Assembly: GCA_963733195.1 (NCBI GenBank)
Contig: CAVTCR010000078.1
Coordinates: 1 to 64,000 of the forward strand
Source: an uncultured delta proteobacterium
Lineage (GTDB): Bacteria; Desulfobacterota; Binatia; Bin18
Reading direction: 5' to 3'
DNA length: 64,000 nucleotides
Of this stretch, positions 34,792 to 43,295 are shown in pieces. The notes under the pieces are model-generated. The model saw nothing but the letters and a program-made list of their open reading frames with translations. It searched no databases and was not told where the DNA came from. Numbering within the stretch: position 1 is the stretch's first letter; every line of letters starts with the position of its first letter. Made by a program: the position numbers and the translations under genes.

Positions 34792-35035
34792 GTAGGGTGG
34801 GCAAAAGCGGAGCGTTGCCCACCGACTCAACAGTTTCGGCACTGTTGGGCTTCGCTTGACTCAGCCCAACCTACTCGCTGTTGTCCCAGGCAGTGCCTGG
34901 GACGGAGCAGGTTTTGTTTCTGAGCAGCCCTTCGACAGGCTCACCTGTCGGACTGCGAGGCAGGATAGACTCCGCGAAACAATCTTTGCCAGAAAAAGAG
35001 ATTGCTTCGTCGCCTGGGCACCTCGCAATGACACC
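34792..35035. repeat. Cluster of REP-like palindromic elements from several families
   Basis: gtagggtgggcaa..ttgcccacc; gttgggct..agcccaacctac; cccttcgacaggctca; gagattgcttcg..ctcgcaatgaca, between convergent genes. Confidence 0.75.
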
Positions 35036-37855: not shown

Positions 37856-38857
37856 CTAACATTTATGCTCATCCACATTGACCCACTGACCTAATTGGTC
37901 ATTGATGCTTTTTTCCGCATCGCGGACAAGCTGCAAATACATGTCTTCGAGTGTCGGCTCGACCGAGCGCACTTCTAGTAATCCCCATCCTTGCTCGAGA
38001 ATCATCCGACTGATCTTTTTCCGAATATCATCTCCAGCGTGCTCAACAATAAAGGCGGAAGTTCCATTCGTTGTGCCGCGGACTTCGGACTCCAGACCGC
38101 GGACTTTTTCGACTTCTGGCACCTTCTCAAGCGCTTCTCGGATAGCCGTTGTCGGTCCCTCGACTTCTACTCGTACCCGACGCGTGCGCTGTACTTGGGC
38201 ACGAAGTTCGGCAAGAGACTGCGACGCGAGGATACGTCCACCGTTAATAATGATCACACGGTCACACACTGTGCTCACTTCAGAGAGGATATGGGTAGAG
38301 AGAATTACCGTGCGTTCAGAGCCGAGGTCGCGAATCAATTTACGGATCTCAACCACCTGTTGCGGGTCAAGTCCGATGGTGGGTTCATCAAGAATCAATA
38401 CTTGTGGCTTATGAATCAACGCCTGGGCAATACCCACGCGCTGACGATAGCCTTTCGATAAATGACCGATGATGCGGTCACTGACTTTCTCGAGGCCACA
38501 GGATTCGAGGACTCTAGCGATTTCGCGTTTGCGTTCAGAACGGGGAACATCTTTGGCCTCGGCAACAAAGTCAAGAAAACTGCGGACCGGGAAGTCGGGA
38601 TAGACCGAGACTCGTTCGGGAAAATACCCAACCAGTTGCTTCACTTGCAGTGCGTGCGTCACGACATCGTTTCCGCCGACACTCGCGTGCCCAGATGTCG
38701 GCGGGAAGAACCCTGCTAGAATGCGCATGGTTGTGCTTTTTCCGGCTCCATTGGGACCGAGAAAGCCAACGACTTCTCCACGTGGCACAGAGAAAGAAAT
38801 GTGGTCAACTGCGAGGATGGGACCGAAACGTTTTGTAACGTTCTCGACTTCGATCAT
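37856..38857 (-). CDS. GldA-like ABC transporter ATP-binding protein
   Basis: GPNGAGKSTT, LSKGYRQRVG, ILDEPT, STH. Confidence 0.95.
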   Translation of the reverse strand: MIEVENVTKRFGPILAVDHISFSVPRGEVVGFLGPNGAGKSTTMRILAGFFPPTSGHASVGGNDVVTHALQVKQLVGYFPERVSVYPDFPVRSFLDFVAEAKDVPRSERKREIARVLESCGLEKVSDRIIGHLSKGYRQRVGIAQALIHKPQVLILDEPTIGLDPQQVVEIRKLIRDLGSERTVILSTHILSEVSTVCDRVIIINGGRILASQSLAELRAQVQRTRRVRVEVEGPTTAIREALEKVPEVEKVRGLESEVRGTTNGTSAFIVEHAGDDIRKKISRMILEQGWGLLEVRSVEPTLEDMYLQLVRDAEKSINDQLGQWVNVDEHKC

Positions 38858-38901
38858 GTATACTCTTTCACAACTCTAGGTGCGGGGGGATTATTCCGCG
38901 A

Positions 38902-39321
38902 CTATTTCAACTTCAACAACGGCAAGAAGGGAGACTCTGGTCGAGGTATGAGTTTTTGCTGAGAACAATCTACCAGCAAGTCTAATGTTTCCAGTATCAC
39001 CTGCCCGAGCAATGGTTCACTATTCGGCGGCCCAACCACACAATTCACACTGGTGAGGCGATTGCCAACTTTTACTGTGACAATCCCAGCAATTGGGCGT
39101 TCCTCTTTGCGTTCATCGGCATAGGTCACGATAGCCTTGCCAACTTCGTTGAGACCGAGGGCCTCCACTAAATCCTGAGGGAGAACCAACATAACTGCAC
39201 CACTATCGACCAGGATCGGAACCTTTGCCGAACGGATCTGTCCCTCCTGAAGGTATCCACGACGCGCTACCTCTCGATCGCCAGCATTCTCCAATTCGAC
39301 TTCAACTTTTACTTCTCCCAT
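38902..39321 (-). CDS. Clan AA (retropepsin-like) aspartic protease
   Basis: LVDSGA catalytic motif; PLLGQVILE. Confidence 0.88.
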   Translation of the reverse strand: MGEVKVEVELENAGDREVARRGYLQEGQIRSAKVPILVDSGAVMLVLPQDLVEALGLNEVGKAIVTYADERKEERPIAGIVTVKVGNRLTSVNCVVGPPNSEPLLGQVILETLDLLVDCSQQKLIPRPESPFLPLLKLK

Positions 39322-39345
39322 GCTGCTACCTTCAGCTTGTTCCGT

Positions 39346-39378
39346 ACAAAAAGCAAGGGTGACGCATGCGTCGCTCTC
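39346..39378 (-). repeat. Cassette-leader repeat copy 1 (hairpin + CCCTTGCTTTTTGT)
   Basis: acaaaaagcaagggtgacgcatgcgtcgctct. Confidence 0.75.
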
Positions 39379-39386
39379 AGGGAAAG

Positions 39387-39843
39387 CTAGCGGATAAACA
39401 AGATCGGGCAGTAGCCGAACGGGACGAGCGGATCGAACTCAGTGGTTCGTCAACTTAATTCTTGGACAGTTGTGACGCCCGGAAGCCTCTGTCATTGCGA
39501 GCGCAGCGAAGCAATCTTTGCTGAAAAAGCGATTGCTTCGTCGCCGAGCGATAGCGTGCTTGCCGGAATACGGAAAGGATGGCCGTTTCTACCTTACATG
39601 AACGCAGTGTCTTGGTATCTCGCAATGCATGCGATGGCCAATTCCCTTAAGCAATGATTGCAGAGCATCCTCCGCCACCACCTCTCCACGTCGCCGAAAG
39701 TAAATGTAATAGATCTCCATCAAGTTGAAGATGTGCGCGTAACAGGTGCTCCCCGGTTCGGTCAGCACCTGTTCGACAACGCCAGCCCCTGGTTCATCAT
39801 CCAGAAAGGCAATCATAGGGCCAGCATCAAGGACGTAATTCAC
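39387..39843 (-). pseudogene. vapC: VapC/PIN toxin, disrupted
   Basis: YVLDAGPMIAFL..EPGA..NLMEIYY; C-terminal EFDPLVPFGYCPILFIR* ending at 39387; middle frameshifted and carrying a REP-like element. Confidence 0.75.
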
Positions 39844-40149
39844 GCTTTGGCTCACGAGGATGCGGTGTTCTTCTCGTCCCTTATCTATTTGACGTTCCCG
39901 ATGGAGGGCCTCGGTGGCCGAACCTGTAGCTGTGTGGGCAAACTTTCCCCGGATGCTTTTCACCACAGCAACAAGCGCCGGGTCGCGCTCGGTAGGAGTC
40001 TCATCGTTAATAGGAGACTTGAGTGTAATGGCCGGGAGGTACGTTTGCAGGATTTGCTCAGCTACATTCACCGGGTCAACGCCTCGCGCTTGGGCGAGTG
40101 CTCGTAAACGAGCTTCTACTTCTGGTAGTAAGTGTAATGTTAACGTCAT
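39840..40149 (-). CDS. Putative VapB-type antitoxin
   Basis: MTLTLHLLPEVEARLRALAQARG..SIRGKFA..TEALHRERQ; directly upstream of the PIN gene (fused in the track ORF, probably by an indel). Confidence 0.65.
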
Positions 40150-40303
40150 GATTATCCTCCGCCTATTCCTTTTGCAATTCGATCTTCGGCATTCTCCAAT
40201 TCGACTTTGACTTCGTCCATAGTGTTTCTTCAACGCCATTTCTTCAGAAAAAGACAATGAGGCAGGAAGAGAAAGAAGCGACCGGAACGGTCGCGCTCCC
40301 AGC

Positions 40304-40338
40304 ACAAAAAGCAAGGGCGCAGCATGCTGCGCCCCTAC
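40304..40338 (-). repeat. Cassette-leader repeat copy 2 (GTAG REP hairpin + CCCTTGCTTTTTGT)
   Basis: acaaaaagcaagggcgcagcatgctgcgcccctac. Confidence 0.8.
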
Positions 40339-40450
40339 GATAATTAGGTGGGCGATGCCCACCCTACTTCTACTACTCCAGAGAATTCCCTCAAAAGCAA
40401 GGCGGCAACGTATTCCATGATTAGAGCTCCCTCAGACGCTCGATCTAAGG

Positions 40451-40726
40451 TCAATTGCGGTAAATCTCGCTCCGATGTCCGATCCTATGAACTGAGAGAA
40501 CTCGCCTCGTTTGATCGACCGTATAGAGAATGCGGTAGTCCCCGACTCTGAACTTAAAAATCCCCCGAAGATCTTTCCCAGAAAGTTGCTCTGGGGCAAT
40601 GGAATCGAAGTTTTCCACAAGCCATTTCAGTCGGTTAAGAAGCCTCTGTGCTACGCTCCGATCCAAATTTTGCAGGTCTTGTTCAGCGTCAGGCCGGAAC
40701 TCAAGAGCATATCCTTTCCCTACCAT
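40451..40726 (-). CDS. RelE/ParE family toxin
   Basis: YALEFRPDAEQDLQNLD..FKFRVGDYRILY..IGHRSEIY. Confidence 0.92.
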   Translation of the reverse strand: MVGKGYALEFRPDAEQDLQNLDRSVAQRLLNRLKWLVENFDSIAPEQLSGKDLRGIFKFRVGDYRILYTVDQTRRVLSVHRIGHRSEIYRN

Positions 40727-40938
40727 TGCAGTCCCAGTCTTCGCACAACCTCTTCAACTGGAATTCCCTTTTCTCCACGCCGCTCAGCTGCGATACTTTG
40801 CCTCAGCCTTTTTTTCACTTCTTCGCGCAAACGCTTCCCTCGGTCAGGGTCAACCGTCAGCTCCATCAGTTTATCCTCAACGACTTCTCTGATAACCTCT
40901 TTGAATTCTTCAACTGTCAAAGCTGAAACTTTTCTCAT
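40720..40938 (-). CDS. Putative antitoxin
   Basis: KVSALTVEEFKEVI..DPDRG..IPVEEVVRRLGL; overlaps the toxin start. Confidence 0.8.
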   Translation of the reverse strand: MRKVSALTVEEFKEVIREVVEDKLMELTVDPDRGKRLREEVKKRLRQSIAAERRGEKGIPVEEVVRRLGLQW

Positions 40939-40982
40939 AACGAGCGTCCTCTCTCATCCCCTTTCTTCAACGCCATTCCTCC

Positions 40983-41020
40983 ACAAAAAGCAAGGGCGCA
41001 GCATGTGCCACGCCCTTGCT
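40983..41020 (-). repeat. Cassette-leader repeat copy 3 / terminator-like hairpin
   Basis: acaaaaagcaagggcgcagcatgtgccacgcccttgct: stem AGCAAGGGCG/CGCCCTTGCT followed by a T tract on the minus strand. Confidence 0.8.
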
Positions 41021-41027
41021 ACCTATC

Positions 41028-41073
41028 CTACTGACTACTGAATGCTGACTACTGACTCCTGACTACTGACTAC
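41028..41073. repeat. CTGACTA heptamer array (about 6 units)
   Basis: ctactgactactgaatgctgactactgactcctgactactgactac. Confidence 0.85.
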
Positions 41074-41085
41074 TTTCCCCAGCCC

Positions 41086-43295
41086 CTAGTACAACTGATA
41101 CTGCAACTCGACCCAGACGTTATCCTTACGATTGAGAACACCCAAGCCCACCATTGCCACGGCCATCAATCACGTTGTAGCGAATGCTCACCGCAAACGG
41201 GTCCCAGAACTTCCAGTCCACCCGGGCTGAATCAGCCAGTTCCCATGCCAGTCGTAGAAGAAGGTGAAACTCGGTCGCAGATTCCCGCCCATGTACGGCG
41301 TGTTCACGTTGAACGTCGTCAACCAATCCCGACTCGGCGCCTTCCACAATGAACACCCCGTCCGGTTTCCCGTGCTCGGCTCGCAACGTGCCGCTACCGC
41401 CGCATTGGTCACCGGCTTCTGGAAGCTACGATTCCGACCCGCGATCTCATCCCGGTCGTTAAACACCCCGAACGGTGCGTTAGCGATCATTGAAATTCGT
41501 CTTCTGCGAATTGCGTCGGGTGTAGAAAATCTGCGCCGAGAAGGAAAAGGAGTTGGCCGGATTGATCCAGCGAAGCCATTGGTTGTGATCTAACCCAATC
41601 ACGAACAAGAACCAGTCCCGTTTCGCGTATCCAACTTTCCGTTTCGTGACCTGATTGGCCAGCGCGCCACCAGGGGCAAAGGCCCCACCGTTACTGCCCA
41701 GTGCCCCCCCCAGGAACCGATCAAAGGCCGTCGTCCCGTCACGATGCGCATAAGCCAAGTTCGTCGGTACATCCTTGAAGTACGCCACCTCACCGCGGAA
41801 GGTGGTGTATAAGTAGTACAGCGGGTTGTCGGAACCGACAAACATCCCAGTCAACGCGTTGACTGGAAACGACAGCGAGGCTCCAGACACCTGAATCCGT
41901 CTCGAATTCCACCGTCGAGCGAATGTTGCGCTCCACACCTGCAATCGTGGCAGTGCCCCCTCGCCCGGTCGGGTTGGCCCCAGACGAGATCATTCGGTCC
42001 GAGATCGGATCATCCAGCCCCCATGGATTCCCCTCGGGCCACGGTCGTCCCTGCGAGTCCGTCGCTAACCCTAAATCCCACCGCAAGTGGTCTCTGGTCG
42101 GTGAGATGATCGACCGCCCGCACCTGGGGTGCATCTTGATAGGTGTAGTAGTGGGCCAGAGAGAAGGTAAAGTCCTAATCGTCCCGACAATGCGACCACC
42201 ACCGCGTCCATCCTTCAGGTTCGAGTGTGGAACAGAGGCACGTTCAGAGCAATTCCCACCCTCGCGTGGCCCTGCCCCGGACCCGGCATACGGCATCAAC
42301 GGGTCTTCATTGTACGCTGGTATCCCTCGCCGCGCCATGTAGTCCCCACCACACGGCGTGCGCCCGACCATAATCGCCGTGTTGCCGTTCTGGATACTGC
42401 CCCAGTAGTTCGTCGAACTGGTCGGTAACCCTGTGGTGGGGATTTCGTTATCGATCGAATAGAACCCCTCCAGCGTCAGGTCATTGATCGGCCCGACCGT
42501 GCCAAAACTCCACTGCGCCCGCAGCATGTTGAGCGGAACCCGCCGCTCATCTAACCCACGTCAGAAACCCGGCAAAAGTGTTGTCCAGGGGGTTGATCTG
42601 GTCAAGCAGCCGAAACCCGTCCGATTCACCCCACGACAGGTTCTGCCTCCCAATGCGGATAAAGAGCGGTCCTTTGGTAATATTGAAGTACCACTCAAAC
42701 AAGCGAATGTTAGGACCGCGCAGCTCCCGCAGATGGCGACGGTTGGTAGAGCGAGATCACATCGGCCGGATCATCGGATGCCTTGCGTCCCGCAGGCCAA
42801 GGATGGCGCGTGACAGCTGCCGAAAATGGCGTGAAGTAGAGCCCATCATATGGGTCGCCGTTCTGCGATCATCAAAGTAGGGGGCTTTGAGGCGTGTCCC
42901 CTTCATCATCTTCTTCATCGCATTGGGGCCGTAGTCCCACACCCCGTCATACTCGTCGCGCATGTTGAGGTAGTAGTCGAAGGAGTCGAAATTGAGAAAC
43001 TCAAACACCGGGCCAATCGTCGGGAACCCGCGCGCGAGGCGGCTGATGTTATGGCGCCATTCTAAGGTGAGAAAGTTCCGGTGCTGGACCAAATTGCCGG
43101 TCTTGGTAGAGCTGTCGGCCCGCTGCCATGCTGTCACTCGACAGGGCGATGGTCCCCCGCGTAATAGGCAAAGCCCGATAGACTCATCTCCCGTCGATCA
43201 TCAAAGAAATACCCCCACGCCGCACTTGTTGGCAGAAACCAGACCGCAAGCACGACAGACAGCCACCAACCCATGTGTTGTCTTTGTCCCCTCAT
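41086..43295 (-). CDS. DUF1302-like outer-membrane beta-barrel (many frameshifts)
   Basis: Signal peptide MRGQRQHMGWWLSVVLAVWFLPTSAAWG; NLVQHRNFL, LFEWYFNI..RIGRQNLSWGESD, IGLDHNQW; C-terminal DNVWVELQYQLY*. Confidence 0.75.

Follow-up and report, generated by a model that had tools for sequence, protein, structure and literature searches.

Integron arrays, and the clusters of at least two attC sites without an integrase known as CALINs, hold small gene cassettes, and toxin-antitoxin (TA) cassettes are typical cargo of chromosomal integrons; the attC sites themselves are imperfect hairpins of ∼57-141 nucleotides (nt), with paired RYYYAAC and GTTRRRY cores and extrahelical bases. Repetitive extragenic palindromic (REP) sequences are known join-points of duplications, and TA loci are said to have been viewed as mobile cassettes by Pandey and Gerdes in 2005. 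In T4-type phages, the so-called PeSL (promoter-early stem-loop) cassettes are built on a short regulatory junction, made up of a promoter and a terminator stem-loop, that is repeated between non-essential genes; recombination between the copies is held to shuffle modules and to yield circles of one junction and one module (Arbiol et al. 2010, PMC2839356). The minimal mobile element is a variable region set between specific conserved flanking genes; it lacks mobility genes and passes among relatives by recombination (PMC3787668). Here we describe an array of small TA modules at positions 38,858 to 41,027 of a 64,000-nt stretch of DNA from an uncultured delta proteobacterium (contig CAVTCR010000078.1 of assembly GCA_963733195.1, class Binatia; hereafter the window), in which the modules are separated by copies of the terminator and leader of a resident retropepsin-like gene.

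The genome of the window (G000) comprises 6,946,292 bases, and all genes of the locus lie on its minus strand. We think it probable, from comparison of its sequence with those of its relatives, that the locus is a small, partly decayed TA islet and not an integron, whose modules have been shuffled by recombination between copied terminator-leader junctions. The copied unit, here called T-R, consists of a terminator hairpin, a T-run contained in a 14-mer, and a leader motif, R. TA modules are known to be mobile and to accumulate, but for those that lack mobility genes there is seldom an account of how they arrive at a site; at this locus, empty, single-insert and multiple-insert states can be read side by side in relatives. 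If our reading is true, the junction-mediated shuffling of T4-type phages extends to bacterial chromosomes, and an operon leader serves as landing pad and expression signal both. The claim is a modest one: the locus is limited to a few uncultured genomes, is half decayed and has no enzyme assigned to it. A limited search of the literature turned up no account of TA arrays in which copies of a resident terminator-leader delimit the inserts, though one may exist.

Set beside the PeSL cassettes, the locus shares a repeated stem-loop junction and a gene content that differs between relatives; it differs in lying on a bacterial chromosome, in carrying TA modules, in showing no promoter consensus in our searches, in using the leader of one resident gene, and in being a single locus known here without circles (PMC2839356). 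It is a minimal mobile element in the sense given above, and departs from the concept in that crossovers fall inside intergenic junction copies, not in flanking genes, and inserts pile up in tandem (PMC3787668).

The likeness to integron arrays lies in a row of small cassettes that share one orientation, include at least one without a promoter, are separated by a hairpin repeat and number from 0 to 3 in relatives. Unlike in integrons and CALINs, the hairpins showed neither attC cores nor extrahelical bases nor an imperfect structure of 57-141 nt when checked by eye and with regular expressions, neither attI nor an integrase is adjacent, and the repeat includes the ribosome-site region and first codons of the resident gene. 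We rejected membership of the integron/CALIN class on site structure. With the dif (pdif) modules of Acinetobacter plasmids, which are served by the host XerCD, the locus has in common discrete modules that are often TA pairs, short sites and, possibly, a remote enzyme; unlike those modules it is chromosomal, and its sites are direct repeats rather than inversely oriented flanking sites. No 11-6-11 Xer-type site was seen by eye, and no formal Xer-site search was made. Finally, as in REP sequences and bacterial interspersed mosaic elements, the first hairpin of the leader (H1) belongs, like the palindrome that lies upstream, to genome-dispersed families of G+C-rich, GTAG-headed palindromes, but the 14-mer variant with its T-run is confined to this locus and there is no sign of a REP-associated tyrosine transposase (RAYT) acting on it.

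A copied terminator-leader junction

In the direction of transcription, the array of G000 comprises junction A, a ParE/RelE pair, a degenerate T-site and two REP-like palindromes, leader B, a gene remnant, a broken vapBC pair, junction C and the retropepsin-like gene (aa, amino acids):

40962-41020, minus strand: junction A, short T-R form, with a 14-pair hairpin, the 14-mer at 40983-40996 and motif R AATGGCGTTGAAGAAA; across 60 nt it has 90% identity with the one junction of G018
40720-40938, minus strand: putative antitoxin of 72 aa, whose stop overlaps the toxin start; 87% aa identity to the copy in G001
40451-40726, minus strand: ParE/RelE-type toxin, full length, 91 aa (PF05016, E 1.5e-14, profile positions 1-89 of 89; TIGR02385)
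40390-40403, minus strand: degenerate T-site GCCGCCTTGCTTTTGA, with which the ParE insert ends on its 3' side; no good hairpin (fold z +1.7)
40347-40363, minus strand: REP-like palindrome GGTGGGC..GCCCACC with GTAG ahead, seen in the sequence and of a type with 14 copies in the genome
40229-40338, minus strand: junction B, the full-length leader, with H1 at 40311-40338 (core GGGCGCAGCATGCTGCGCCC), the 14-mer at 40304-40317, a second hairpin (H2) at 40278-40294, and T2 and R at 40229-40260
40152-40220, minus strand: remnant of the retropepsin 5' end, 22 codons (MDEVKVELENAEDR..), 86% identical to the real 5' end and ending 2 nt ahead of vapB
39589-40149, minus strand: in-frame fusion of vapB with the 5' half of vapC (PIN), from open reading frame (ORF), profile match and alignment
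39489-39546, minus strand: core of a ∼57-nt palindromic repeat, inside ∼200 nt that replace the middle of vapC; 32 other genome copies
39387-39443, minus strand: surviving 3' end of vapC (..TEFDPLVPFGYCPILFIR, stop), its last 19 codons, aligned to the intact vapC of G014, G006 and G001
39322-39380, minus strand: junction C, with a decayed hairpin, the 14-mer at 39346-39359 and a short leader of the type of the empty locus L059
38902-39321, minus strand: resident retropepsin-like gene, 139 aa (PF13650, E 1e-9; PF13975; TIGR03698 under the cut-off)

The 14-mer CCCTTGCTTTTTGT has three exact copies in the whole genome, all on the minus strand within one 1.7-kb stretch, one in each junction. With at most one mismatch there are six copies genome-wide, and with at most two there are four in the window against 0.60 expected, a number reached in 0 of 100 shuffles. 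An earlier note on this stretch, written from the letters alone, had pointed out these three copies together with a degenerate one at 40392 and a second common motif at about 40226 and 40962, and all of this was borne out: the degenerate copy is a 10-base core, CCTTGCTTTT, at 40393-40402, and the second motif is AATGGCGTTGAAGA on the gene strand, whose only two genome copies lie at 40227 and 40964. The palindrome said to precede each 14-mer is strong at A (14-pair stem, 41020-40989; fold z -5.2) and B (12-pair stem, 40338-40311; fold z -4.2), both scored terminator-like, but weak or decayed at C in G000 (fold z 0.2), where G014 and G006 have it well formed. H2 is also called terminator-like on the minus strand, and A, B and H2 each present the G+C-rich stem-loop and T-run, 3' of a gene, of a putative intrinsic terminator. 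The hairpin stems vary between genomes with compensating changes. No match to any Rfam family was obtained between 37.5 and 42.5 kb at E ≤1.

We also considered the 14-mer as a dispersed REP and rejected this, because its three genome copies all lie at this locus; what is dispersed is the palindrome that forms the core of the hairpin, taken without its T-run. The 20-mer core of H1 has 7 genome copies, mostly of the form GTAG..CTAC, GTAGGGGCG has 71, and the type GGTGGGC..GCCCACC has 14. GTAG-headed, G+C-rich perfect palindromes (GTAGGGGCG...CGCCCCTAC) occur for example at C26:75557, C62:242492 and C81:117224, and are REP-like, as is the GGTGGGC..GCCCACC type.

The three accessory units that the same note saw between the two flanking genes fared unequally: the RelE-type TA unit is full and the retropepsin-like protein is confirmed as PF13650, but the PIN domain is only a fragment, and the retropepsin gene proves to be resident, not captured. 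The ParE/RelE pair, with its toxin fold and an overlapping small upstream ORF, has the organization of a type II TA module and looks intact; the 72-aa antitoxin candidate had no family match in profile searches. The fusion of vapB to vapC comes from one extra base relative to three relatives, by which the usual GTGA overlap is lost, and this base may be an assembly error. The PIN fragment covers profile positions 1-63 of 120 (E 0.002, under the Pfam cut-off). A VapBC module with complete PIN domain and vapB is thus lacking in G000 and present in G014 (133-aa VapC), to which the vapC copies of G006 and G001 align without frame-breaking gaps; the vapBC pair of G000 is, to judge by its sequence, dead. 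The retropepsin-like protein has DSG in G000 versus DTG in relatives, and in every related locus its gene is conserved beside the leader. Among 22 long ORFs from 26.7 to 55.4 kb that were tested, none had a match to an integrase or transposase family.

Empty and filled loci in relatives

The earlier note had proposed to search the genome and its relatives for the motif and to compare the content of the junction among them, and both were done; all genomes compared are metagenome-assembled, and the assembly of G000 has many frame breaks. In a scan of 185,579 species (one genome per species), the T-R pattern was found in 3 records, all of which hold this junction, and in none of the metagenome contigs scanned as well. 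One record with this junction (among L054/L055) is titled as a Klebsiella pneumoniae metagenome-assembled genome, the others as Deltaproteobacteria bacterium, and the former title is probably wrong.

The content of the junction varies between 0 and 3 inserts. Nine related loci are empty (G018, G022, L058, L059, L060, L062, L064, L065 and L066, with L130 a near-copy of L060), and four (G000, G001, G006 and G014) are filled, with 1-3 TA inserts each. Empty loci consist of a terminator hairpin, a T-run and a short leader, followed by the retropepsin gene with nothing between. In G018 and L058, a short tandem repeat of a dispersed kind separates the stop of a DUF1302-like gene from the leader, which has the order H1, T-run, H2, T2, R, with the retropepsin start codon 5-6 nt after motif R. 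L059 shows a short form (H1, 14-mer, 24 nt, start codon); in L060, L130 and L064, T2-R stands directly behind an MMPL-type gene; and L062, L065, L066 and G022 have a different terminator hairpin and a short leader. Because these related empty loci show the ancestral state, we take the 14-mer to be the 3' half-stem of a terminator plus its T-run, T-R to be the leader of the retropepsin gene, and the gene to be resident; on this comparison, it is a resident gene and not a cassette. In a metagenome set of 80 loci found by retropepsin alignment, an ATP-binding cassette (ABC) ATPase follows the retropepsin gene in 8, and homologs of vapB, vapC, the antitoxin and the AF2212-like protein (see below) were found in none.

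Of the filled loci, those of G014 and G006 are the simplest, with the full leader, a retropepsin remnant of 14-16 codons, 27 nt, an intact vapBC, hairpin, T-run and R, and then a 14-nt start remnant and the intact retropepsin gene. The array of G001 opens with the full leader and a start remnant in degenerate form, behind which stand an AF2212-like antitoxin and a PIN stub of 16 codons. Next come T-R and the antitoxin known from G000, whose ParE partner has here been lost through a deletion at a TGCAA microhomology, and then vapBC, H2-T2-R and the retropepsin gene; the right-hand junction of its vapBC is an H2 form without H1 or 14-mer. The position of the antitoxin unit within the array is not the same in G000 as in G001. 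Copies of the hairpin/14-mer and leader border every insert, and all 12 aligned junctions share C(C/A)(C/T)TTG-T-run-R. On the left, inserts begin at no fixed base, 4 to 16 codons into the copied retropepsin 5' ends.

DNA related to vapBC occurs in 6 of 401 genomes of the class. In G005 and G003 it lies at other sites, with a common upstream region of its own and no T-site; at the locus described here, no more than ∼27 nt ahead of vapB have been retained. Since the G005 and G003 copies share such a region, which is the expected place of a promoter, vapBC stands at this locus without it.

Exchange of an insert between genera

G000 and G014, which belong to different genera by their assigned labels, are far more alike in the insert (272 of 297 positions identical in vapB, 191 of 197 in the 5' half of vapC) than in the flanks (305 of 416 in retropepsin, 81 of 112 in leader B, 45 of 64 in the DUF1302 3' end; Fisher p = 1.5e-17), so that the vapBC insert is 92-97% identical between genera against 65-73% for the flanks. 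G014 and G006 likewise show 10 differences in 840 nt of insert versus 85 in 601 nt of flanks (p = 1.6e-23); their low-divergence block starts at T2, the last flank difference being at 635, and ends with CCCTTG, the next difference being the following base, 1488. On these figures, the vapBC insert has clearly moved between genera.

The joints tell of further exchange. As far as CCCTTG, junction C of G000 agrees with G014 on its insert side, and from CTTTTTGT on with the empty L059; junction A follows G018 up to the 14-mer and then the antitoxin leader of G001; and junction B has 88-90% identity with the G001 leader and with that of the empty L058. The junctions of G000 thereby resemble three allele types (A like G018, B like G001 and L058, C like L059), which fits recombination with the DNA of relatives and not duplication within one genome. 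Behind one and the same vapBC 3' end (hairpin-CCCTTG), the sequence on the right in G000 differs from that in G014/G006. Because the inserts are bounded by T-R, are more identical than their flanks and have breakpoints at the 14-mer, we regard the copied junctions as recurrent recombination joints.

The alternative that survives these data best, although we hold it to be unlikely, supposes no present mobility: illegitimate insertion into the leader would have happened once or a few times in the distant past, with vertical descent, differential loss and decay thereafter, and hairpin and T-run would have been kept, or have converged, as needed terminators. It would explain why the vapBC junctions are the same in all four filled loci, as from one ancestral event, and it agrees with the heavy decay (vapC destroyed in G000; ParE deleted and a PIN stub left in G001) and with the terminator scores of hairpins A and B. 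The excess of insert over flank identity across genera speaks against it, however, as do the mixture of empty (G018, G022) and filled (G014, G006) loci within one genus, the retropepsin gene of the filled G014, which is closer to that of the empty G018 (94%) than to that of the filled G006 (89%), and the different placement of the antitoxin unit in G000 and G001.

A model for the growth of the array

In the model of shuffling by recombination that we favour, the ancestral empty region would have consisted of the REP-like H1, the T-run, H2, T2, R (the ribosome-site region) and the retropepsin start codon, and promoterless TA modules would have entered at the extreme 5' end of the retropepsin gene. 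Each entry would have duplicated the leader (T-R) and the first few retropepsin codons, and because a second copy of both was left each time, an intact retropepsin gene would have been kept downstream; the result would be the order T-R, insert, T-R, insert, T-R, retropepsin. Exchange among these T-R copies, inside the genome or with the DNA of relatives, would then add, delete and reorder inserts. A crossover of two direct T-R copies would free a circle of one insert and one T-R and restore the empty locus; such a circle, crossed with a resident T-R, would integrate and give the observed structure; and unequal exchange between alleles would stack inserts. The surviving set may also reflect selection, in favour of inserts that are expressed and leave the gene behind them intact. 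The recombination would most simply be of RecA type or act by short homology on the 14-130 bp of common junction, with the circles as presumed intermediates, and the hairpins would terminate transcription, with inserts expressed from the leader.

The earlier note had proposed serial capture of cassettes at a REP/terminator-like, attC-analogous platform, possibly driven in trans by an HUH/RAYT enzyme or else by recombination between leaders. Serial capture is supported in part, by the 0-3 inserts, their T-R bounds, the breakpoints at the 14-mer and the one insert that moved between genera, though not by the left junctions, which are not fixed. The last-named alternative is the one favoured here. 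The platform is not supported: the motif is the locus's own terminator and leader, was found at no other locus in the scans, and has no attC features. The enzyme in trans is not supported either, although candidate genes exist on other contigs.

Several points weigh against shuffling between the junction copies. The homology at the joints is short (14 to ∼35 nt, or ∼130 nt with the full leader) and the flanks are only ∼70% identical between genera, so RecA-type exchange would be inefficient; and a site-specific enzyme, too, would leave its joints at a single short motif. The duplication of the leader at the first insertion is unexplained. Expression from the leader can only be inferred, since the unit has no sigma-70-like promoter on the gene strand: none was found between 38.7 and 41.3 kb, where the promoter types of the host may differ. 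Neither circles nor deletion variants were seen, in read data too thin to test them (20 runs with shares of ≤0.13, four of them used as short contigs, with cover mostly from dispersed repeats). The breakpoint analysis was made post hoc on few sequences (4 filled loci, 3 informative joints), and single-base features such as the vapB-vapC fusion may be assembly errors.

A possible site-specific system

One could instead see in the hairpin and CCCTTG|CTTTTT a recombination site of attC, pdif or REP-like type, acted on by a RAYT-like HUH enzyme, the integron integrase of contig C33 or Xer, with the cassettes as one-site circles; we rate this as quite improbable. Put more fully, and with equally little expectation on our part, hairpin, CCCTTG|CTTTTT and R would be the docking site of an integrase-free system, and promoterless TA circles would circulate among genera and dock at the head of the resident operon. 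That operon would supply expression, and a host enzyme encoded elsewhere (a RAYT-type HUH protein, Xer, or the integron integrase acting off-site) would cut at the foot of the REP-derived terminator hairpin, a proposal in which we place no more trust than in the docking itself.

Such a system would account for the three informative joints inside the 14-mer, for the one vapBC 3' end with its differing right-hand partners in G000 and in G014/G006, and for co-oriented cassettes and a vapBC without the upstream region of its other loci; H1 belongs to a dispersed family of GTAG-headed palindromes (20-mer core 7 times, GTAGGGGCG 71 times in the genome), and the genome does encode a RAYT-like gene and an integron integrase. 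A working cassette system would be expected, however, to scatter its site over many cassettes, and the T-R unit is found at this locus only, with motif R occurring twice in the genome and the pattern as rare in the species and metagenome scans as given above. The hairpins are moreover near-perfect stems of 28-32 nt with a T-run and show neither RYYYAAC/GTTRRRY cores nor extrahelical bases, the left insert junctions vary over the 4 to 16 codons already described, and the right-hand vapBC junction of G001 has the H2 form without H1 or 14-mer.

As for the candidate enzymes, the integron integrase is intact at C33:20009-20953 (L138 507-1595) and scores 477 bits against a TIGR02249 cut-off of 265. 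No attC-like sites beside it passed a filter on core sites and fold. A pair of attC-like CCTAAC...GTTAGG cores lies 111 nt apart at ∼5 kb from this gene, and integrase fragments occur at C33:5375-8931 and on C32 and C1. A RAYT-like HUH gene is located at C70:93736-94261 (L146 937-1462; ..LPDHLHCLW.., ..DYIHYNPVKHGLV..). Against the site-specific reading, it is split by a frameshift in the assembly, and the GTAG-headed palindrome pattern is unmatched within 600 nt of it; one 15-nt GTAG/CTAC inverted repeat stands just upstream. We know of no RAYT that moves gene cassettes. Six IS200-type Y1 transposase genes are also present in G000, three of them with in-frame stops.

An assembly chimera, in which strain alleles were joined at short repeats, would suit the three allele types of the G000 junctions and a metagenome bin with many broken genes, but is very improbable given common repeats of 14-35 nt, which are too short to mislead an assembler, the same build of the array in three other assemblies, and short contigs from public runs, possibly not independent of the source sample, that span junctions C (39193-39463, 0 differences) and A (40875-41032, 1-3 differences).

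Neighbouring genes and repeats

The islet is bordered by the following features:

41087-43295, minus strand: DUF1302-like outer-membrane gene in several frames (PF06980 at 42577-42708, 28 bits; tblastn to relatives)
41028-41077, minus strand: short tandem repeat of CAGTAGTCAG units, one copy of a genome-dispersed repeat
37856-38857, minus strand: ABC transporter ATPase, first of a row of ABC-2 permease, GldG-type and DUF4340 genes

The flanking genes had been named DUF1302 and gldA-like in advance. The first label rests on a weak match of 28 bits, to a gene whose 3' end (..CAGTATCAGTTGTACTAG) is conserved in relatives; the gldA-like gene is the ABC ATPase, followed by the ABC-2 permease and the GldG-type protein.

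Distant retropepsin homologs (53-60% aa identity, 14 genome loci) stand in unrelated contexts, without the leader. From 309 ORFs beside retropepsin homologs in 90 loci, 179 small ORFs were selected, and the 105 of them that were scanned gave one TA family match (HicA, L067); on this count we do not claim a general link between retropepsin and TA genes. Some distant loci have, by eye, HicB-like or DUF433-like neighbours. In L044 (G009:C1:391591-393000), from a more distant genome, two tandem retropepsin-like genes lie ∼1 kb apart, each behind a repeated upstream region of ∼100 nt, which is, as far as its arrangement indicates, an independent duplication of leader plus gene involving retropepsin-like genes.

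Between 41087 and 47935 of the window, the DUF1302-like gene and MMPL-type transporter genes upstream of it are each in several frames, as pseudogenes or through indel errors of the assembly. Tandem repeats of the CAGTAGTCAG type are found downstream of genes in G000 (33 sites, from 18 and 15 copies of the 13-mer core) and in relatives. The ∼57-nt palindromic repeat (GACGAAGCAATC..GATTGCTTCG..CGCTCGCAATGAC) also occurs at 34974-35014 and has many copies in related genomes.

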